DNA of 64,000 bases, taken from the IMG/VR virus record IMGVR_UViG_3300027828_000003; one strand, given 5' to 3'. This DNA comes from an uncultured virus (IMG/VR IMGVR_UViG_3300027828_000003) (lineage: Duplodnaviria > Heunggongvirae > Uroviricota > Caudoviricetes). Below the pieces are notes generated by a model that saw only the letters and a program-made list of their open reading frames with translations, ran no database searches and was not told where the DNA came from. Shown in pieces: positions 43,559 through 54,965 of this stretch. Numbering within the stretch: position 1 is the stretch's first letter; each line of letters opens with the position of its first letter. The position numbers were made by a program, and so were the translations under genes.

Positions 43559-43624
43559 GCCGCAGGCGCCGCCCAGATCGAAACCTGGACGGCTCCCCTG
43601 CAACGGAGATCTGACTTGGCGGCT

Positions 43625-43683
43625 GCCTCATCAGGCCACGGGTACCACCCGTGACGACCAGCCCGAAAAGGGCTGGTTTCGGC
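43625..43683 (-). ncRNA. Hammerhead ribozyme, type II; predicted cleavage 3' of C at 43656
   Basis: GCC-GAAA-CCAGCCC UUUUC GGGCUGG-UC-GUCACGGG UGGUA CCCGUGGC-CUGAUGA-GGC. Confidence 0.8.
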
Positions 43684-43702
43684 TTGTTCCGGCCGATGCC
43701 GG

Positions 43703-43885
43703 TCAGTCCTGGCTCATCCTGGCCTTGAATGACCGGATGGTCATGGTTTCGACTTCACCTTTCGGGTCCGTCGGATAGAACTCACCGTGGATGCAGTCTT
43801 TCGCGAAAGCCACGGCTTCCGAACGTGTACAGGGTTTGTCCGTCTTGAGGACGATGCAGATTTCATGGCGTCTGCTTTTGGCCAT
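43703..43885 (-). CDS. Hypothetical protein
   Basis: AAGGAG RBS; last gene of leftward operon. Confidence 0.5.
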   Translation of the reverse strand: MAKSRRHEICIVLKTDKPCTRSEAVAFAKDCIHGEFYPTDPKGEVETMTIRSFKARMSQD

Positions 43886-44891: not shown

Positions 44892-44917
44892 TTCTACCTC
44901 CATGTTGCAGTGTGGTT

Positions 44918-44979
44918 TCCCACTACCGACCCCGCAGGGCCGGTTTCGACCAGTCACCAACTGGTCTCGTCAGGCAGGA
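44918..44979 (-). ncRNA. Hammerhead ribozyme, type I (GUA triplet, cleavage after 44924)
   Basis: UCCUGC-CUGACGA-GACCAG UUGGUGA CUGGUC-GAAA-CCGGCCC UGCG GGGUCGG-UA-GUGGGA. Confidence 0.9.
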
Positions 44980-47048
44980 TTTCTTGATTGGCTTACCGAT
45001 AGCGCGGTGGCGATCGGCTGCACCCAGATCGGTTCGTTCGACAGCGAAAAGGTCTGTCCGCTCCATGCCATCAGCAAGGTGCGTCCCATGGTCGAGGCGA
45101 TGGCCTGCGCTGCGGGCGGCGGGACCGCGTTTCCGATCCGTTCCCGCCATGCCGAGTCCGAAAGCCCCTCGAGCTCCATATGCTCTTCGGGACAAACGAG
45201 CCCTTGTAAAGCGGCCAACTCCAAGGTCGTGAACGGGCGATGCCACGTATTGTCGAGGGAGTGGATCACCACCACCAACCGGTCTTCCGGCGCCGGCAGT
45301 TGACAAATCGGGTCGATATTCGGATCCGGTTGCACACGCGGGTCCGCAACCGACCATCGCCCGTTGTCATGCTGAGCCGCCGCCGAGACCGCGCCGGCCG
45401 AGTCCCACCACGGGACAACACCGTAGTGCCCGCCCGATTGGTAGTGTTCCCGGCCGTCCTTGGTGAATTCAGGCCGGGGATCGGCAACGGAGAAGGCCCC
45501 GTTCCCGGTTCCGCTGGCCCCGATGACGGTGCCTGCCTGTCCATCCCAGTCGACGACACGATACTTGCCTTTCCCCTGGTAGGACGAATCCGGCCGCGGA
45601 TCGGCCACGCTCAACGCACCGGATGCAACCTGTTGGGCGCCAGTGATGGTGTAGGCCGGGTCTCCCCAGTCCGTGACCTTCAACTTGGCGCTCGATGCAC
45701 CTGGATGCCAATTGTTGTAGCGAGGATCGGCCACCGAGAACTTTCCGTTCGTCGGGAAGCTTTCCCCCGCGACAGTACCGGCCTGCTCGTTCCAGTCCGT
45801 GACGCCCATATGGCCATTGAAATGACCGCCACGGGGATCGGCCACGGACATTGCGGCGCCACCGACATGCTTCGCGCCGGTGACGACATGGGCGCTCCGG
45901 TCCCATCGCACGACACGATAGAACCCGTTGTGCCGGTTCTTCGATGGAGGCATGCGCGGATCGGCCACCGAATGGGGCCCACCACCGACCAACATCTTGC
46001 CGGTGACGACACCCGTCGATTGATCCCATTTCCGAACGCCATGCTGAACCGATCGAGGATGACCGTCGATGCGCGGGTCCGCCACGCTGTAACAGCCGTT
46101 CGTCGGCGTGCTGCGACCCTTCACCGTCACCGCCGGGCTGCCCCATGGAGTGACCCCCATGACGCCCTGGTGATAGCTTTGGTCGGGCATGATCCCGAAA
46201 TCCTTGAGAAAGCCGTCTTCAACATTCAGACGTTTCAAGGATCGCCAATCGCTACCGGCCTCGATGAAGGCCAGCCGAACCCAGGTTTTCCATTGAAGCG
46301 ACGGGATGCGATGCATGGGCCCCGCGGCCGCGACATCGCCGGGCAACGGGAAGCGTTCCAAGACCTCCCCTACCCCTTTCAAAGGCCTATGCATAGGCTC
46401 ATAGAGGAAGGGCGGAATCTTCTCCGCGTGCCGTGCCACGAGCAGGAAACGCTTCCGGCTCTGGGCCAAGCCGCCGAGATGGCCGCAATCGTGCGTCGTC
46501 TCCGCGACCAGATAGCCGTAATGCGCCAGGAGCGCGACAATCCGGTCGAGAAGCTTCCGACCGCGGTTCATGATGCGGGGAACGTTCTCAAACACGATCA
46601 GTTCCGGCGGATCATCCTGCCAGGCCTCGAGCATGAGCCAGACCCCGCGAAGGGTAAGGCTGTTCAACGCCTGATACTTGTCGCCCTTGCTGGCCGCTTC
46701 GGGCAACAAGCCCGAGAAGCCTTTGCAGGGAGCGGACAGGAACACGATATGCGGACGTTCGCCGCCCGCCGCGCGCTGGATGTCTGCCGCCGTGGCTTCG
46801 GTCCACCCATAAGGCGGCTCCTTGCCATGAAACGCCATGTACTGCTGGCGATTGAACAGGTCCAAGACCGTTCCTTTCACGCCGGCCAGCTGATCGAAAT
46901 CAGCAATGGCGCCTTGGTCGACATCGATTCCACCGATGCATTTGAACTTCGCGTTCAGGCTACCAACGCGGGCTTCGCCTTTGTTGAAGCCTTTCGCGCC
47001 GCCACCCAATCCGCAGAATAGGTGGAAGTGCCTAATCTCTACATCCAT
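44970..47048 (-). CDS. DNA (cytosine-5) methyltransferase with internal repeats
   Basis: HLFCGLGG, APCKGFS, ENV, Q.R.R, IGNAVP; seven SVADPR repeats; start moved to ATG after shared RBS. Confidence 0.9.
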   Translation of the reverse strand: MDVEIRHFHLFCGLGGGAKGFNKGEARVGSLNAKFKCIGGIDVDQGAIADFDQLAGVKGTVLDLFNRQQYMAFHGKEPPYGWTEATAADIQRAAGGERPHIVFLSAPCKGFSGLLPEAASKGDKYQALNSLTLRGVWLMLEAWQDDPPELIVFENVPRIMNRGRKLLDRIVALLAHYGYLVAETTHDCGHLGGLAQSRKRFLLVARHAEKIPPFLYEPMHRPLKGVGEVLERFPLPGDVAAAGPMHRIPSLQWKTWVRLAFIEAGSDWRSLKRLNVEDGFLKDFGIMPDQSYHQGVMGVTPWGSPAVTVKGRSTPTNGCYSVADPRIDGHPRSVQHGVRKWDQSTGVVTGKMLVGGGPHSVADPRMPPSKNRHNGFYRVVRWDRSAHVVTGAKHVGGAAMSVADPRGGHFNGHMGVTDWNEQAGTVAGESFPTNGKFSVADPRYNNWHPGASSAKLKVTDWGDPAYTITGAQQVASGALSVADPRPDSSYQGKGKYRVVDWDGQAGTVIGASGTGNGAFSVADPRPEFTKDGREHYQSGGHYGVVPWWDSAGAVSAAAQHDNGRWSVADPRVQPDPNIDPICQLPAPEDRLVVVIHSLDNTWHRPFTTLELAALQGLVCPEEHMELEGLSDSAWRERIGNAVPPPAAQAIASTMGRTLLMAWSGQTFSLSNEPIWVQPIATALSVSQSRNPA

Positions 47049-47081
47049 AACAGTTTCTCCTTGTTGCAGTTTGCGGGACAT

Positions 47082-47143
47082 CCCGCGACCGGGCGCCGAA
47101 GCACCCGGTTTCGGCTGTGTGTCAAACAGCCTCATCAGGCGGG
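47082..47143 (-). ncRNA. Hammerhead ribozyme, type I (GUC, cleavage after 47087)
   Basis: CCCGC-CUGAUGA-GGCUGU UUGACAC ACAGCC-GAAA-CCGGGUGC UUCG GCGCCCGG-UC-GCGGG. Confidence 0.92.
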
Positions 47144-47183
47144 TAATGAGTTTTACTCATTCTCACAGGTAAAAAAACACCGA

Positions 47184-48659
47184 TCATCTGTATGGAAAGG
47201 ATTTGTCCTTGTTCAGGCAGACGATCACCGTGTTGACGTTCGTGCCAACAGGCAGAAACGAGCCCGGCGGGAGATCATCCATCCGGGCCTTGTATTCATC
47301 CAGCAGCTTCCGGAAGGCCACGCTCTTCTTCGTCATCCTGAATTCCGTTCCGGCGCTCATGATCGAGATCAGATAGCCGTTCGGATTCAGGAATTTCATC
47401 GCGTGCAAGACGTGGTCAATGTCCCGTTCGAGGTCGAACGGTGGATTCATCACGACCCGGTCGTAGATCGGCTTTGGCTCGACATCCAGGAAATCACCGC
47501 AAGTCACCTTGCGGAACTTCCCGGATGCATCGAGTTCGGCCGCCAAATCTGTCTGGATTTCGACACAATCGACAACACCGCCATTCTCGACCGCTCTATA
47601 GGCCAAGCTGCCGTTACCGGCGGACGGTTCTAGAACGAGCAAAGGTCTTCGGTCTTCAGTAGGACGCCAAATCTTCGCTTGCCTCATGACGATCTCCGCG
47701 GCGTCCTCCGGCGTCGGGTAGAAGCCCCACCCTTTCGCCGGCGTGCGCTTGACCTTGAAGAGGCTGTCTTCCTCTTCCGCGGCCTTGCGGTACTTTTCGC
47801 TGCGCTCTTCGGGAATCACGTCGCCGTAGTATTCCGCCAAGAGCTTGTTGACCCGTTCAACCAGGTCGTCGCGCTGGAACCAGACGTGACAGTTTCCGTT
47901 CTTGAAAATACGGATCTTGAAATACTCTGAATCGACTTCGGTTTGACGGGGTGAAAGAGAATGACCGTCATTCCTTCGCGCTGTCTCTATGGCGTTTAGG
48001 AGTTGGCTATAAGCCGGGTTGTCCCGTTCGTCGTCGAGAACACGAAAAGTTCGCTCGATGTCGATCAGCGTGTCACGCATGTTGCTGTAATGGTTCCAAG
48101 TGCCCCACTCATCGAAACACCGGTCCAGGATCACACGGTTGCCGATTTTCCAACCGTCGTGGCTTCTGAACCGTCGATCCAGCTTGGAAAAGCAAGTGGC
48201 GATTCCGCGCTTGAAGATCGTGTCACGGTCCAGGAACAGCTGCTCTATGGTGGCAATGACGTTTTCTTCAGTGATGTCGGGTGGATCATCCACCAACTGC
48301 CTCCGAAGATCGTCCTTCGCCGTTTTGTCCATCAGCTGCTCAAGAGCCGTGATTTCGATGATCCTGGACCAGCAGTCGGAGTCGACCGCGCGCCGAACCG
48401 TCGTTTCAAAGAATTCACGCGACGGAACATTGAAGTCCGTCAGGTGGCATTTCTGAAGATGTTTCGACGAACCGTAATTGAAGCCGGTCGTGCCGGCCGC
48501 CATACGGGTTTTGGTCTTGTGCGCTTCATCGATCGCCTGCCGAGCCGATTCCAAGGCGTCATAGGCGCAACCGTAGAGACGGAGCGCCTCGTCCCTGTAC
48601 CGGACCAGTTCGGCGACAGTGATGCGAAGTGCTGGAAGTTGACCGTCAGGCATGACCAT
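47184..48659 (-). CDS. DUF4942 domain + amino-methyltransferase
   Basis: YF..R.FKNGN.H..F.R.DLV...N; FYPTP, LEPSAG.G, MNPPF. Confidence 0.85.
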   Translation of the reverse strand: MVMPDGQLPALRITVAELVRYRDEALRLYGCAYDALESARQAIDEAHKTKTRMAAGTTGFNYGSSKHLQKCHLTDFNVPSREFFETTVRRAVDSDCWSRIIEITALEQLMDKTAKDDLRRQLVDDPPDITEENVIATIEQLFLDRDTIFKRGIATCFSKLDRRFRSHDGWKIGNRVILDRCFDEWGTWNHYSNMRDTLIDIERTFRVLDDERDNPAYSQLLNAIETARRNDGHSLSPRQTEVDSEYFKIRIFKNGNCHVWFQRDDLVERVNKLLAEYYGDVIPEERSEKYRKAAEEEDSLFKVKRTPAKGWGFYPTPEDAAEIVMRQAKIWRPTEDRRPLLVLEPSAGNGSLAYRAVENGGVVDCVEIQTDLAAELDASGKFRKVTCGDFLDVEPKPIYDRVVMNPPFDLERDIDHVLHAMKFLNPNGYLISIMSAGTEFRMTKKSVAFRKLLDEYKARMDDLPPGSFLPVGTNVNTVIVCLNKDKSFPYR

Positions 48660-48727
48660 GGCCCCCTTCCCGCTTTTTCAAGTGTTTCATCGTAGTTCTC
48701 CATGTTGCAGTTGTGGGGTAGTGACTT

Positions 48728-48785
48728 CCCACGACCGCCCCAAAAGGGCGGTTTCGGCCCGTGTCACGGGGCCTCGTCAGGTGGG
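48728..48785 (-). ncRNA. Hammerhead ribozyme, type I (GUC, cleavage after 48733)
   Basis: CCCAC-CUGACGA-GGCCC CGUGACAC GGGCC-GAAA-CCGCCC UUUUG GGGCGG-UC-GUGGG. Confidence 0.92.
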
Positions 48786-49454
48786 TTTGAGATCGAACGG
48801 TGGCGGCGTTTGGGAGATTTTGTGAATCCAGCCGCCGGGTTGCCAGTCCGGATCGTCTTTTGGCGCTTCCGGCATGATCAACTCCGCTTCCTCGCCGGAA
48901 TGCCTCTTGTACCCGAGCGGGACAGTTCCGTCTTTTCGGTCAAGCTGGATCGTCTTCACGACCTGATCGACCAGACCTGTCTTCTCGGCAAATGATCCGA
49001 AGAAATTCGCATAGGAGCGATAACCGGTCGGCGATATGAAAGGACGGTCGAAGTCGACCGCATGGGCGCTGAACCCCAAACCGAACAAACCCCGATAGTC
49101 GATCAACACACGGCATTCGAGGACATTCACAATGAACCGTCCCGGCTGACCGAACATTGGCACTTCGCCGCCACTGGATTGAATGGCGTCGATAATGCGA
49201 CCGTAGGCACCTTCCTTCGTGGCGATTGCGAAAATGGTGCCGTCATTCATGCGAACAGCCAGGTTTCGAACCTGTTCCAAGATCGCCACACCGGTCTCGC
49301 CGTCCCCATTGAGGACCGCTTGATCGTAACGGACAAGTTCGTCCCAGATCGCGGCGATCAGGTCGTCCTCATCCGTCGGTAGAGCGTCCAAGGCAGCGCG
49401 TTGCGCCCGTTCTGCGTCAGTGGGAAGGTCCATTCCCAAAGCAAGCTGTGTCAT
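48777..49454 (-). CDS. KlcB-like protein
   Basis: GEVPMFGQ.G.F..., HAVDFDRPFIS.TGYRS resembles IncP KlcB (recognised by eye). Confidence 0.6.
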   Translation of the reverse strand: MTQLALGMDLPTDAERAQRAALDALPTDEDDLIAAIWDELVRYDQAVLNGDGETGVAILEQVRNLAVRMNDGTIFAIATKEGAYGRIIDAIQSSGGEVPMFGQPGRFIVNVLECRVLIDYRGLFGLGFSAHAVDFDRPFISPTGYRSYANFFGSFAEKTGLVDQVVKTIQLDRKDGTVPLGYKRHSGEEAELIMPEAPKDDPDWQPGGWIHKISQTPPPFDLKPT

Positions 49455-49488
49455 ATTGGTCTCCGTGTTGCAGTTACGGTATCGGCTA

Positions 49489-49558
49489 CCGCGACGGCCA
49501 ACTTAACGCATGACGTTAAGTTGACCGTTTCGGCCCCGCCACGGGCCTCGTCAGGCGG
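49489..49558 (-). ncRNA. Hammerhead ribozyme, type I (GUC, cleavage after 49493)
   Basis: CCGC-CUGACGA-GGCCC GUGGCG GGGCC-GAAA-long stem III-UC-GCGG. Confidence 0.92.
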
Positions 49559-50369
49559 ATCCATGGTGTTGCGGAACCCGAAGCGGATTCGGGTATCCTT
49601 CCGGCAGGAACGGCTGAAGGTCTTTCTTGATGTAGTGCCGTGCCCCAAGCTCCTGCAGGAGCTCGATCATCCGGTGGGTATAGTCTTCCCAGTCGGTCGT
49701 TTTCGTCATGGACAGGTAGTTCACCCGCCCGACCTTGTAGAGATCGACGAATTCATGGGTTTCGCGAACGATTTCCATGCTGCTTTCGACATCCAGGGTC
49801 GGCTCGAGGCTGACCCAGGTGAAGATGCCGGCCGCATGAAAGGCCTTGATCGCTTCAATCCGATCTGCCGGCGCCGCGGCGTCGCGTTCCCATTTCCGGG
49901 AAAATCCTTCGTCGAGGCTGGTCAGTGTCGAGGCAAAAGCATCACGATCGCGTCGAAACAGGTCGATATCCCGCAACGCCCTGGTTCCACCCTTGGTCAA
50001 GGTGCAGAAGCCCAGACCATGATCCCGCAGGACGATCAGGGTTTCCCGGGTCAGCGAATTGTCGCCCGGGTGATACGGATCGGTCGTGAACGAGAGCATG
50101 ACCTGGCCCGTCAATCCGGCCGCCCTGTACTTCTTGGCGTCCTTGACGAGGTTGGCCATGTAGTTCTTGCGCGGCACCGCGCCGGCATCGAACTCTTTCC
50201 GGTCCTGCTTGGTGACGCGCGGCACATAGCAATAGGCGCATTTGTGCCCGCAGCCGCGATATGGGTTTGCGGCCAGTGGCGCATATTCTCCGGCCTGACC
50301 TTTCGGCGCGTAGATATGCGTGCATCCCTTCAGCGAAAGGCCATCGGGATTGATTGTTGGTGTATGCAT
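49551..50369 (-). CDS. Radical SAM protein (SPL-like)
   Basis: NPYRGCGHKCAYCY CxxxCxxC; TDPY; LTK; WVSLEP. Confidence 0.85.
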   Translation of the reverse strand: MHTPTINPDGLSLKGCTHIYAPKGQAGEYAPLAANPYRGCGHKCAYCYVPRVTKQDRKEFDAGAVPRKNYMANLVKDAKKYRAAGLTGQVMLSFTTDPYHPGDNSLTRETLIVLRDHGLGFCTLTKGGTRALRDIDLFRRDRDAFASTLTSLDEGFSRKWERDAAAPADRIEAIKAFHAAGIFTWVSLEPTLDVESSMEIVRETHEFVDLYKVGRVNYLSMTKTTDWEDYTHRMIELLQELGARHYIKKDLQPFLPEGYPNPLRVPQHHGSA

Positions 50370-50390
50370 TCAAATTCTCCATGTTGCACG

Positions 50391-50419
50391 ATAGTATGAG
50401 TTTAACTCATTATTGCGAA
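50391..50419 (-). promoter_or_regulatory. Putative promoter with operator ATGAGTTTAACTCAT (50396-50410)
   Basis: TTCGCA-N17-TACTAT on minus strand. Confidence 0.5.
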
Positions 50420-50637
50420 GATGCCAAAACATATGTAACTGCCTGCATCTTCACGATTTTCTTGGATAAACGATATGTCTACTTATAGCCCTATTGAATA
50501 CCTATTTAGAGAGCCTTCCTATTGACTATTCGGGCGACTTCCCCAATTAAGAAACATCCATGTTGCAGTGGATTTCACCGACCTTGATCGGTGCATCTAC
50601 ACCCGAGCCGGATCACTCCGCGCTCGGGTGTTGTGCA

Positions 50638-50943
50638 TCAGGACATCAGGTTGTCGAAATAGGCCTTCGCCGACTCGTAGTCGCGATATTGCCGACCGTG
50701 CTGCGCGCCACCCATTTCGAAGTGGACCGCATAATGGCCGTTCGTCCATCGCATCATCGAGCCGGCAGCATGCCAACCGGCAGTCACGGCCTTCAACTGA
50801 ACCTCTCGGCCGCCGAGCGCCTTTCTGGTTTCCAAAACGGTGATCTCCGGCCGCGGTTCAAGCCTGCTATTCGGCTCTTCAAGCAAGCACTTCCCTGCCG
50901 GGATGTACTTATCTCGAAAATGGACATTCGGGATTTCAAGCAT
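50638..50943 (-). CDS. Hypothetical protein
   Basis: Starts after shared RBS motif. Confidence 0.6.
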   Translation of the reverse strand: MLEIPNVHFRDKYIPAGKCLLEEPNSRLEPRPEITVLETRKALGGREVQLKAVTAGWHAAGSMMRWTNGHYAVHFEMGGAQHGRQYRDYESAKAYFDNLMS

Positions 50944-50969
50944 ATCGGTTCTCCATGTTGCAGTTGCGG

Positions 50970-51035
50970 TTTCCCACGACCGACCCCGCAGGGCCGGTTT
51001 CGGCCAGTCACCAACTGGCCTCGTCAGGCAGGAAA
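50970..51035 (-). ncRNA. Hammerhead ribozyme, type I (GUC, cleavage after 50978)
   Basis: UUUCCUGC-CUGACGA-GGCCAG UUGGUGA CUGGCC-GAAA-CCGGCCC UGCG GGGUCGG-UC-GUGGGAAA. Confidence 0.92.
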
Positions 51036-51452
51036 GTAGTCACAGGCGATCTGCTCGTCGGTGATCTCGAGTTCGAAGGTCGAACCCGGTTTGAGCTTTT
51101 CGGGCAGTTCGTCCAAATGGAAGACTTCGACGAAATCGTCGCCGCCGACCGCATCCCGGCTCCGTTCCCAGAACCCTGGATCATCAGGCGAATATCCGAG
51201 CGCGTAGACGACCTTCTTCTTGCCCGGCCGGTCCGGATCGAGCATGGCCGGGAAGCCATTCGATACCAAGTAGATGCCGTCGTCTTTGACGATCAACAAA
51301 CCCGGCTGTCCCAGTTTTTCCTCGCCGTCCTGGGGATCAATACTCCCGGTCAGGTCGAGACGTTCGCCGAAAGTCAGGCTATGTTCGTTCGAAGCGCGTG
51401 CATGCACCATCAACAAATTGACCGAGTCGGCAGGGAAACGAAGTTTCGTCAT
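51024..51452 (-). CDS. DUF3085-like protein
   Basis: L.VKDDGIYL.SNG, VYA.G..P, GGDDFVE. Confidence 0.7.
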   Translation of the reverse strand: MTKLRFPADSVNLLMVHARASNEHSLTFGERLDLTGSIDPQDGEEKLGQPGLLIVKDDGIYLVSNGFPAMLDPDRPGKKKVVYALGYSPDDPGFWERSRDAVGGDDFVEVFHLDELPEKLKPGSTFELEITDEQIACDYFPA

Positions 51453-51958
51453 TTCCTGTCCTCCTCGATCGACTGTTGGACGCCCGGCAGACGATAGATG
51501 TTCTCCGGATCCGTGTCCGACGCGTTGAAGTAGTCGATCTGCGCCTTGACCTCTTTGATGTCATCAGCCTCGTCCTCCTGCCACCGATAGCTATACCGGC
51601 GTTCCGTATCACCCTTCTCGGGCGGCACGAGGTAGACCGAAAATCCACCATACTTGAAGGCTTCGACCTCGCCGGCCGGCCGCCGCATGCTCGACATCAC
51701 GATCTCCGCGGCGCGTTTTTGACCGATCAGGAGAATGTCCCGGTTCAGTTCGTCCGCGTGCTGCGCCATCTCGTCGTAGCTATCGCCGTTGCACCAGAAC
51801 ACCGGTACAGGGTGGTAACCTGGCTCGTTCTCGACAGCGATACCGAGGCCGAACCCTTCAGATTTGGCAACCACTGGGACAAACGCCCAGTTCTTGCCGT
51901 CGACGACCGTAAAAAGGTCACATTCGGCCATGCCTTCCGTTGTCAATTGTTTCAGCAT
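51449..51958 (-). CDS. Hypothetical protein
   Basis: Starts after shared RBS motif; GIAVENEPGY. Confidence 0.6.
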   Translation of the reverse strand: MLKQLTTEGMAECDLFTVVDGKNWAFVPVVAKSEGFGLGIAVENEPGYHPVPVFWCNGDSYDEMAQHADELNRDILLIGQKRAAEIVMSSMRRPAGEVEAFKYGGFSVYLVPPEKGDTERRYSYRWQEDEADDIKEVKAQIDYFNASDTDPENIYRLPGVQQSIEEDRK

Positions 51959-51993
51959 TTCAGCTTCTCCATGTTGCAGTTACGGTAATGCAT

Positions 51994-52064
51994 ACCGCGA
52001 CCATCACCCCCGGCTGGCGCCGGGGGCTAGGTTTCGCCGGGATTGCACCGGCTCGTCAGGCGGC
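51994..52064 (-). ncRNA. Hammerhead ribozyme, type I (GUC, cleavage after 51999)
   Basis: GCCGC-CUGACGA-GCCGG UGCAAUC CCGGC-GAAA-CC..GCCCCCGGC GCCA GCCGGGGGU..GG-UC-GCGGU. Confidence 0.9.
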
Positions 52065-52469
52065 TTCTGCTTCTTCGGGCTGATGACCCTGCATGATGAT
52101 GTTCTGCAGCCATTGGGCCAGGAAATCGTTCTGGCCCTTCTTTTCCTTCGGATAGACCTTGCCCGGTTCGGGGTAGACCTCCCGGAAGGAGCTCAGGTAG
52201 TCCTGCTGAATGTGAAGGGCTTCCGCCATCTTCAGCTTCGGGACGACCGCGACCAGCATTTCGGGATCCGCCATGAGATCGCCGTTTTGCAGCCCATAGT
52301 GCGCCAGGGAGACCTTGACCCGGTCCTTCTCGCGCTCGACGACCTCGACGCACAGATCCATGAATCCGGACGCCTTCAACTTGGTGTGGAAGCCGACCTC
52401 ACGGTCCTCGATCCCCGGAATGATTTTCGTCAAACGGGCGTAGATCGTCTTGTAGATTTTGTGTTCCAT
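52056..52469 (-). CDS. DUF1249/DUF6908-like protein
   Basis: GFMDL.VE, SLAHY..QNGDLMADPEM, FL..WL.NI..QG. Confidence 0.7.
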   Translation of the reverse strand: MEHKIYKTIYARLTKIIPGIEDREVGFHTKLKASGFMDLCVEVVEREKDRVKVSLAHYGLQNGDLMADPEMLVAVVPKLKMAEALHIQQDYLSSFREVYPEPGKVYPKEKKGQNDFLAQWLQNIIMQGHQPEEAEAA

Positions 52470-52505
52470 CTCGAAATTCTCCATGTTGCAGTTACGGTAT
52501 TGGCT

Positions 52506-52562
52506 ACCGCGACCGGTCCCGAAGAACCGGTTTCGGCCCCGCCACGGGCCTCGTCAGGCGGC
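52506..52562 (-). ncRNA. Hammerhead ribozyme, type I (GUC, cleavage after 52511)
   Basis: GCCGC-CUGACGA-GGCCC GUGGCG GGGCC-GAAA-CCGGUUC UUCG GGACCGG-UC-GCGGU. Confidence 0.93.
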
Positions 52563-53027
52563 GTTCAATTCGCGATTGACGCGCGATCTGAAATCAATAA
52601 GAGCGGGCGCATATGCCTCGTGATAGTGCCCATGGTACCGGCCACCATCCTCGAGGTTCTGCCACCATGTCGCGTAGGGATGGCGCACGTTGTCGATGCA
52701 GCAGAGCAGAAAACGACCGGGGGCCGTCATTTGACCGTCTGGTGACGGGTGTTCCGCTACAATGAAGCCGGTCGACCCGGCGCCCTTGACCCCCTCGATA
52801 ATCGAGCCAGGGAACACGTATTTCGTCCGCTCCTGGATTTGAGCTTCGGAAACGCTGCCGACCTTTTCGAAGTCAATGCCCTTGTGGATGCACCACAGTT
52901 CGGCGATTTCCTCGACTTGGGTCTGATTTTCGCCCTCGATGTGCTTATGCAGCCAATTCGTGAAGCCGACCCCTGGCCCGCCGTGAACGGTCTCGGCCAG
53001 CTTGATCGACGCAAAATAGATCGTCAT
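52554..53027 (-). CDS. Hypothetical protein
   Basis: Starts after shared RBS; HPYATW....G...GHY. Confidence 0.6.
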   Translation of the reverse strand: MTIYFASIKLAETVHGGPGVGFTNWLHKHIEGENQTQVEEIAELWCIHKGIDFEKVGSVSEAQIQERTKYVFPGSIIEGVKGAGSTGFIVAEHPSPDGQMTAPGRFLLCCIDNVRHPYATWWQNLEDGGRYHGHYHEAYAPALIDFRSRVNRELNAA

Positions 53028-53058
53028 TAGATTCTCCCATGTTGCAGTTTGCGGACAT

Positions 53059-53127
53059 ACCGCGACCAGCCGTCGCACAACTTGCGACAACTGGTTTCGC
53101 CGGGATTGCACCGGCTCATCAGGCGGC
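53059..53127 (-). ncRNA. Hammerhead ribozyme, type I (GUC, cleavage after 53064)
   Basis: GCCGC-CUGAUGA-GCCGG UGCAAUC CCGGC-GAAA-CCAGUUGUCGCA AGUUG UGCGACGGCUGG-UC-GCGGU. Confidence 0.92.
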
Positions 53128-53601
53128 TTGATTGACCTGGCGCGGGTCGTTCCAGACCTGGGCGCCGGCGTCGACGTAAAGGCCGACGTAATGGTCAAGG
53201 GGACAGTGAGAAAACCCGTTGTAGGGTGGTGCGTCGGGTGTCACGCCTGTGATGAAAGACGGGCCGGAAATGACCAGATCGATCAGCTTTTCATGCGGTA
53301 TTTGACGCATATCGACCACAGGGACACCTAGACCTTTCAGAATGCTGGCGTAGGGCTCGCCCTCGCCATATCCTTCCAGTCGGCATCCTGAAACGCGCGT
53401 ATTGGCGTCTTCATAGTGGACTGTCCAGCCACCGTGGCCGATGGTCATCAAGACCGCCCGACGGATGGTCGCCAAACTCGACTTGATCGAAAAACGCTCC
53501 TTTGTCCGCGCCTCGATGTGTTTTCCGTTTTCCCGCAATTCCATGTGATACCACCAAGTTTTGGCATGGTGATTCAACTTTTTGTAAATGACGGTTCTCA
53601 T
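53119..53601 (-). CDS. Hypothetical protein
   Basis: Starts after shared RBS motif. Confidence 0.6.
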   Translation of the reverse strand: MRTVIYKKLNHHAKTWWYHMELRENGKHIEARTKERFSIKSSLATIRRAVLMTIGHGGWTVHYEDANTRVSGCRLEGYGEGEPYASILKGLGVPVVDMRQIPHEKLIDLVISGPSFITGVTPDAPPYNGFSHCPLDHYVGLYVDAGAQVWNDPRQVNQAA

Positions 53602-54943: not shown

Positions 54944-54965
54944 TGGATTTTCTCCGTGTTGCAGT

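Follow-up and report, generated by a model that had tools for sequence, protein, structure and literature searches.

Stop codons of upstream genes in the catalytic cores of a hammerhead ribozyme array from an uncultured phage

Background

Arrays of hammerhead ribozymes have been described in prophages, where several hammerheads on the same strand lie around single genes, the anti-restriction gene ardA among them (Perreault et al. 2011, PMC3088659). According to the text of that paper, the arrays of Clostridium scindens, Azorhizobium caulinodans and Agrobacterium tumefaciens are cleaved in vitro during transcription, the A. tumefaciens array is also cleaved in vivo, and the role proposed is the cutting of a long phage transcript into gene-length mRNAs. 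Here we analyze an array of this type in a stretch of 64,000 nucleotides (nt) from an uncultured virus of the Caudoviricetes (IMG/VR record IMGVR_UViG_3300027828_000003), which in its full length will be called the window, and we ask how its hammerheads are placed relative to the stop codons of the genes upstream. It resembles the arrays of PMC3088659 in having same-strand hammerheads near tail and integrase genes together with cargo of an anti-restriction type, which is ardA there and DNA methylases here. The text of that paper does not describe three features of the present array, namely the overlap of a gene's stop codon with U4G5A6 of the ribozyme, a hairpin at the new 5' end and a leader of fixed form; the word "stop" is found in its main text only in "stop buffer", and its text supplements do not contain "stop codon", "start codon" or "ORF" (open reading frame).

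Nucleotides shared between coding sequence and hammerhead are known from zeta viruses and betaviroid-like circular RNAs, in which, according to a preprint (bioRxiv 10.64898/2026.09.16.752053), ORFs overlap the hammerheads and some start or stop codons are included. For prokaryotic hammerheads, two reviews (PMC6765202 and PMC6155905) regard the role as still unsettled and make no reference to stop codons. In the literature covered, from which Jimenez 2011 and Weinberg 2015 were absent, no mention was found of a stop codon lying within a hammerhead of bacteria or phages.

Results

The hammerheads were detected with a motif scan and a structure-aware detector that found seven of the eight, while the one at 52059, whose stem III contains an internal mismatch, was placed with a regular expression. 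All are type I hammerheads on the minus strand and, numbered 1 to 8 in the direction of transcription, have their C3 at 53122, 52557, 52059, 51027, 49554, 48780, 47138 and 44973. They share one layout, which consists of CUGAYGAG, the stem II hairpin, CGAAAC, the stem III hairpin, a cleavage triplet (GUC in seven, GUA in one) and a stem I of 4-8 base pairs (bp) with its 5' strand ahead of the core. Stems II and III have at least 5 bp in all except the hammerhead at 52059. We used the invariant-core criteria given in the Methods of PMC3088659 (C3 U4 G5 A6 N7 G8 A9, G12 A13 A14, A15.1-U16.1 and an H17 that is not G), and by these the invariant positions, CUGAYGA, GAAA and GUC/GUA, are intact in 8/8. 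The order of a type I hammerhead (2.x strand, CUGANGA, hairpin, GAAA, hairpin, UH and 1.x strand, with loops closing stems II and III and stem I left open) is likewise found in all eight. Beyond the predicted cleavage site every module continues with a hairpin of 4-6 bp whose first base is also that of the 3' product, followed by a 13-nt leader, CUGCAACA(U/C/A)GGAG, which contains a Shine-Dalgarno sequence, and by a start codon, so that the distance from predicted cleavage site to start codon is uniform within the window (32-42 nt). In some modules a possible pairing of loop II with the tail that follows stem I can be seen by eye, for example GUGAC with GUCAC in the hammerhead at 48780.

All eight type I motifs stayed below the gathering scores of the Rfam hammerhead families (clan CL00010), and RF00163 gave no match at E<=10; the best scores below threshold were 22.4 bits for Hammerhead_3 (cutoff 48.5) at 53089-53141 and 20.3 bits for Hammerhead_II (cutoff 37) at 48699-48759. 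Because Rfam misses all eight, the identification as type I rests on the core, the helices and the covariation described below. A type II hammerhead at 43617-43684 on the minus strand, which Rfam does recognize (RF02276, 52.6 bits), continues the array downstream, and the stop codon upstream of it (43703-43705) lies 18 nt ahead. In total, eight type I hammerheads and one type II hammerhead are found on a single strand over 9.5 kb.

The original prediction, made from the letters and a list of ORFs, held that seven of the eight hammerheads have, in the UGA of their core, the in-frame stop for the gene upstream, and the ORF calls bear this out at 53119, 52554, 52056, 51024, 49551, 48777 and 44970 (lowest plus-strand coordinate of each UGA). 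The 5' strand of stem I provides the last codons, giving the predicted C-termini QAA, NAA, EAA, FPA, GSA, KPT and NPA in the same order; the final codon is always NN followed by C3 and the penultimate codon coincides with stem I. The last two residues are encoded by the 5' strand of stem I. The exception is the hammerhead at 47138, where the upstream gene has its stop at 47184-47186 and the spacer holds a 17-nt palindrome. Finding seven of eight in one frame has p=0.0026 under the assumption of random and independent frames, and p of about 0.0003-0.004 against the base rate of 24-35% in the family as surveyed below. The eight junctions are not fully independent, since three pairs of modules (53122/52059, 52557/49554 and 51027/44973) have an identical stretch from stem I through the core to stem II together with the same last codons, and the modules at 51027 and 44973 are 88% identical overall.

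Stem III differs within the pairs 53122/52059 and 52557/49554 and is common to 51027/44973. Paired modules with a differing stem III hint at mosaic exchange or at a fast turnover of stem III. In the modules at 52557 and 44973 the frame of the core UGA meets no further stop in the whole of the ribozyme and leader and runs on into the frame of the next gene, where readthrough of UGA-C would fuse both proteins. The next start codon is in the frame of the core UGA at four of the eight junctions, which is no more than chance.

To see how the stop codon is placed in related hammerheads, we searched viral contigs with a pattern that has no constraint on the upstream sequence; at least 126 stretches matched, 80 of them with full flanks. 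The survey set consisted of 84 unique viral hammerheads with at least 500 nt upstream, among the matches listed, a scope that applies to all survey counts given here, and 444 CTGA sites served as controls. Upstream ORFs were assigned by a longest-ORF and a closest-ORF rule. By the longest-ORF rule 20 of the 84, and by the closest-ORF rule 29, had the core UGA as the stop codon, against 4.5-9.2% of the controls; in 27-34 the stop came 4-20 nt ahead of the core UGA, directly before stem I (controls 2.9-5%), while the gene read beyond the core in only 2-5 (controls 24-28%). As evidence against itself the original prediction had named a random core frame in homologs, and this was not seen: the three frames were open for at least 80 codons into the core in 28, 9 and 6 cases (binomial p=2e-5). 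Cruder earlier counts had given 16/86 with a core stop and 26/8/4 for the frames of 82 hammerheads. The C-terminal dipeptides of the stop-in-core class were PA (11), TA (8), AA (3), SA (3), PT (2), LA (1) and TT (1), matching what stem I predicts. Covariation between stem I and the upstream coding strand was followed in 146 unique matches collected without a stem I filter, in which pair 1.2-2.2 was C:G in 94/100 and U:A in 31/46 with another seven U:G (U:A or U:G in 38/46). The start codon of the next gene was located at a median of 41 nt from the predicted cleavage site in 63/84 relatives.

The position of the stop varies from array to array. All four stops are in the core in array L171 and three of five in L170, one of those three being ambiguous; L172 has one ambiguous and two abutting stops, and L173 has none in the core. 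In L169 four of five stops lie just ahead of stem I and one is ambiguous, and all five of its hammerheads are followed by a leader similar to that of the window (CUGCAAUGGAG). L152, which also has a similar leader (CUGCAAUAUGGGG), has its stop in the core in 0/3 cases. A search of metagenome contigs for the leader together with the ribozyme returned 26 stretches, of which five belonged to the record of the window itself and only L152 and L153 were true relatives; the same pattern returned two stretches in genome contigs, both chance matches within genes, and 14 in viral contigs, all of them one chance match in a coding region.

Homologs of the proteins encoded upstream were also examined for a C-terminal [APST][AT], which was found in 15/55 for the DUF6908 protein, 1/12 for the DUF3085 protein and 23/150 for the 225-residue protein, where composition alone would give about 5%. 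Among viral relatives of the DUF6908 gene (66 loci read of 67 listed, the other one extending beyond its contig), L174 and L178/L179 end in EAA without a hammerhead, so the C-terminal dipeptide was dropped as an unreliable proxy for a hammerhead. A hammerhead downstream of the DUF6908 homolog was seen by eye at only three of the 66 loci (L193, L208 and L214), with the stop ahead of stem I in 3/3. These three have the form CUGAUGAU, with an extra U ahead of stem II, and were missed by the detector, which means that the surveys count too few variants of this kind. In Rhodobacter phage RcTiptonus, which encodes a homolog of the 160-residue protein, no CTGANGA was found close to any annotated gene end in 12.4 kb.

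The eight modules were also folded by nearest-neighbor methods. The minimum-energy structure was the 3' hairpin in six of the eight, the hammerhead in one and neither in one; enforcing stem I costs 0-3.2 kcal/mol, so that the two states are predicted to be nearly isoenergetic. Of 122 relatives, 98 have a hairpin whose first nucleotide is 1.1, as against 41% in shuffled sequences, and its presence is not linked to the position of the stop, with 23/29 for stops in the core, 28/34 for abutting stops and 19/21 for stops that are far away or absent. Nucleotide N7 showed no shift toward the stronger UGAU or tandem stop in the stop-in-core class (C19/T8 versus C29/T26, p=0.16), and a tandem UGAUGA is present in only one of the seven stop-in-core hammerheads of the window. 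Masking of the Shine-Dalgarno sequence by a downstream 2.x' strand in the uncleaved state was considered and rejected, the pairing being weak (4 bp) and available in 3/8 only.

PHROGs matches were obtained for 50 of the 81 ORFs called by a greedy procedure in the window and indicate a temperate siphophage, with a tape measure protein, minor tail proteins, a J-like fiber, endolysin, repressors, integrase, replication genes, several methylases, small terminase, portal and scaffold. The array spans 44.9-53.1 kb in a DNA-methylase-rich accessory operon adjoining the packaging genes. As in clustered prophage hammerheads, several ribozymes in the same orientation surround single genes or short blocks, with phage modules and an integrase present: six of the seven intervals separating type I motifs hold one gene, and the interval 51027-52059 holds two (51452-51958 and 51024-51452), which are joined by an ATGA overlap (51449-51452) at a junction without ribozyme. 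Touching or overlapping genes are frequent elsewhere in the window. The ORFs upstream of the hammerheads look like real genes, four of them having Pfam families (C5 methylase, radical SAM, DUF3085 and DUF6908).

All the modules and genes that follow are on the minus strand. Hammerhead 1 (53035-53127) follows a gene for 160 amino acids (aa) with relatives in four Rhodobacter phages (53119-53601), which ends QAA-UGA; the 5' strand of stem I is at 53127-53123 and the core UGA at 53121-53119, within a tandem UGAUGA, and predicted cleavage after C53064 is followed by the 5' hairpin and leader CUGCAACAUGGGA. Hammerhead 2 (52479-52562; core UGA 52556-52554) takes up the NAA-UGA end of a 157-aa gene that has a single weak relative (52554-53027), and beyond its predicted cleavage after C52511 it has a 6-bp 5' hairpin at 52510-52494 and leader CUGCAACAUGGAG. 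The 137-aa DUF6908/DUF1249 gene (52056-52469; Pfam) ends EAA-UGA in hammerhead 3 (51967-52064; core UGA 52058-52056), which has predicted cleavage after C51999, a 6-bp 5' hairpin and the leader, and the 142-aa DUF3085 gene (51024-51452; Pfam) ends FPA-UGA in hammerhead 4 (50951-51035; core UGA 51026-51024), where predicted cleavage after C50978 precedes a 5' hairpin with a GAAA loop and the leader. Hammerhead 5 (49461-49558; core UGA 49553-49551, predicted cleavage after C49493, then 5' hairpin and leader CUGCAACACGGAG) contains the GSA-UGA end of a 272-aa radical SAM gene (49551-50369; Pfam), and hammerhead 6 (48698-48785; core UGA 48779-48777, predicted cleavage after C48733, then 5' hairpin and leader) contains the KPT-UGA end of a 225-aa gene with 356 relatives at E<=0.001 (48777-49454). 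The core UGA of hammerhead 7 (47057-47143; UGA 47137-47135) is not a gene stop, as the 491-aa gene ahead of it (47184-48659), which has DUF4942 and N6 methylase-like parts, ends with its own UGA 46 nt ahead of the hammerhead; the predicted cut is at 47087/47086. Hammerhead 8 (44898-44979; core UGA 44972-44970) receives the NPA-UGA end of a 692-aa C5 cytosine DNA methylase fusion (44970-47048; Pfam) and has the GUA triplet, with A44924 as the predicted cleavage site, a 5' hairpin with a GAAA loop and the leader.

After hammerhead 6, the start codon of the leader opens an upstream ORF of 14 codons, MKHLKKREGGHGHA (48649-48690, minus strand), that overlaps the true start (48659) of the DUF4942/methylase gene, an arrangement that suggests translational coupling. 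The leader, (C/G)UGCAACA(U/C/A)GGAG, has its first base on the minus strand at 54964, 53620, 53047, 52491, 51979, 50963, 50568, 50389, 49473, 48710, 47069 and 44910; it precedes 11 start codons and is found at four junctions without hammerhead (54964, 53620, 50568 and 50389). It may be a standardized site for translation initiation or for the binding of a regulator. One of its copies ends a strongly structured element of 95 nt at 50556-50650 on the minus strand (-45.3 kcal/mol, z -5.5). The element comes after a gene (50641-50943) whose stop lies in CCUGAUGC, and it is itself followed by an ORF of 4-12 codons alone. This element has no Rfam match at E<=10 and was rejected as a hammerhead by eye, with C at A9, G at position 17 and no stem I. 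A pair of palindromes, AATGAGT-N3-ACTCATT and ATGAGT-N3-ACTCAT, was found at 47145-47161, in the one spacer that separates a gene from its hammerhead, and at 50396-50410, in an AT-rich gap beside a promoter-like site, TTGGCA-17-TAAACT (50427-50399); the repeated palindrome is a possible operator.

Discussion

We consider it probable that the active-looking hammerheads of this array are intercistronic self-processing modules in which gene and ribozyme are packed as tightly as possible, with a 3' untranslated region of zero length. Self-cleavage would split the operon transcript between cistrons; the upstream message would keep stems II and III as a hairpin-capped 3' end of 43-58 nt, and the downstream message would have a short hairpin starting exactly at its new 5'-OH end. 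We infer that these end hairpins would protect the cleaved messages. The 13-nt leader with its Shine-Dalgarno sequence would then serve the next gene, whose start codon is 32-42 nt from the cut. From what is established about non-stop mRNAs it can be expected that a gene must stop ahead of the cleavage site, as the cut message would otherwise have no stop codon. The CCRC-like 5' strand of stem I leaves no room for a stop, and U4G5A6, the one stop trinucleotide that is invariant within the ribozyme's 5' half, would be the last stop available before the cut; in a compact genome, genes would run up to the core, and stem I would then fix their last two residues as [APST][AT]. The bias in the core frame would follow from these elements: a stop needed before the cut, a stem I free of stops and a single invariant stop. 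With tight packing the stop has two possible positions, one directly ahead of stem I and one in the core, hence the two peaks observed in the relatives. The intact core positions in 8/8 and the presence of all three helices support the explanation as a whole. In the relatives surveyed, genes that end tight against the ribozyme are the rule, and a stop in the core is a common, optional form of such packing.

Several points weigh against this explanation. The 7/8 of the window and the 4/4 of L171 exceed the family rate, which suggests that some lineages favor the stop in the core for a reason that packing alone leaves unnamed, although the spread of one module along with its last codons is a likely explanation of this excess. 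The module is not minimal, given its 32-42 nt leader, and the 8-12 nt saved at the stop would be a small gain. Nearest-neighbor folding prefers the 3' hairpin over stem I in 6/8, so that efficient cleavage is not self-evident. Finally, the ORFs of the survey come from simple rules and not from a gene finder, and its sample is drawn from the matches listed out of at least 126 stretches.

The original prediction suggested that each ribozyme may be a sensor of translation, with genome compaction as its alternative. One premise of the sensor is sound: from the established footprint of the bacterial ribosome, a terminating ribosome with UGA in its A site covers the 5' strand of stem I, CUGANGA and the start of stem II, therefore the hammerhead cannot be folded during termination, and gating by the ribosome is physically plausible. 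Its most developed form would be a bistable switch, in which the post-cleavage 1.x strand (GYGG) pairs either with the 2.x strand inside the gene, giving the active stem I, or with a further copy of the 2.x strand 4-10 nt downstream, giving the inactive 5' hairpin; the ribosome ending the upstream gene would hide 2.x and let the hairpin win, so that translated messages would remain polycistronic for longer while untranslated ones would be cut. If true, self-cleavage, and with it the separation and fate of the two cistrons, would report upstream translation. Both pairings are available in 8/8 modules, the folding gives stem I and hairpin nearly equal energies and forms the hairpin in most modules when their 5' part is masked as under a ribosome, and the stop is 20 nt or less from the core, within the reach of a terminating ribosome, in 47-63 of the 84 relatives. 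We nevertheless regard the switch as unlikely. The hairpin is equally common whatever the position of the stop, which makes it look like a general 5'-end feature, and shuffled sequences already form it in 41%; N7 shows no adaptation; and a conserved stop-in-core register, for which the original prediction proposed to check homologous cassettes, was not seen, with stops in the core in 20-29 and abutting in 27-34 of the 84 surveyed and the closest relatives having 0/3 in the core (L152) or 4/5 abutting (L169). None of our comparisons supports a sensor in each ribozyme, the register being unfixed, N7 untuned and the hairpin unlinked to the stop. Compaction fits better, as the bias in frame follows from the simpler packing rule.

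Common descent could also produce shared core stops without selection at each gene, if a junction consisting of the last two codons, UGA, ribozyme, hairpin and leader spreads as a block through recombination, either from phage to phage or inside the genome. The three module pairs that keep the same stem I, core, stem II and last codons, two of them with differing stem III and the third (51027/44973) 88% identical, point in this direction, as do the lack of relationship among the flanked genes, the leader at four hammerhead-free junctions and the similar leader at all five L169 hammerheads. Such a block would account for the high count in the window but not for the function of the module, and it is compatible with packing; moreover, the EAA ending of the DUF6908 homologs L174 and L178, which have no hammerhead downstream, indicates that at least one tail predates its junction. 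We give this explanation quite a small chance, a little below that of the switch. Least probable is that the hammerheads are decayed or inactive and that the UGA overlap has no meaning at the RNA level. The absence of all eight from the Rfam results at gathering score, without even a type I match at E<=10, and the preference of the folding for the competing hairpin speak for decay, but against it stand invariant positions intact in every copy, three helices in each, strong covariation of stem I in the relatives and at least 126 viral stretches matching the pattern. Tight packing of self-processing modules thus remains our preferred explanation.

Conclusions

The locus is a clean natural array of eight modules with uniform geometry and a standard leader, and could be used as a test bed for whether phage hammerheads insulate and stabilize single-gene messages, whether upstream translation interferes with cleavage, and how natural modules of ribozyme, hairpin and ribosome-binding site compare with engineered insulators. 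It is also of value for annotation, because a stop in the core predicts [APST][AT] C-termini and because ribozymes missed by Rfam can be located directly at gene ends.

Engineered insulators of the RiboJ type, derived from a satellite-RNA ribozyme, are placed after a promoter and have a hammerhead, then a hairpin and then a ribosome-binding site. The phage modules have the same order, by which the downstream gene would obtain a defined 5' end, but unlike RiboJ they are joined to the 3' end of the coding sequence ahead of them. In the early genes of phage T7, intercistronic cuts by RNase III separate the messages and leave hairpin-capped 3' ends; those sites need a host nuclease, whereas here the RNA would cut itself and the processing site overlaps coding sequence. 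The sharing of nucleotides between coding sequence and hammerhead motif is common to the window and to the zeta viruses and betaviroid-like RNAs, which, as far as the preprint describes them, differ from the phage array in being small circular RNA replicons from eukaryote-associated samples that use type III ribozymes for replication. The layout of same-strand hammerheads around phage genes has been known since Perreault et al. 2011, and the locus described here is an unusually regular example of it.

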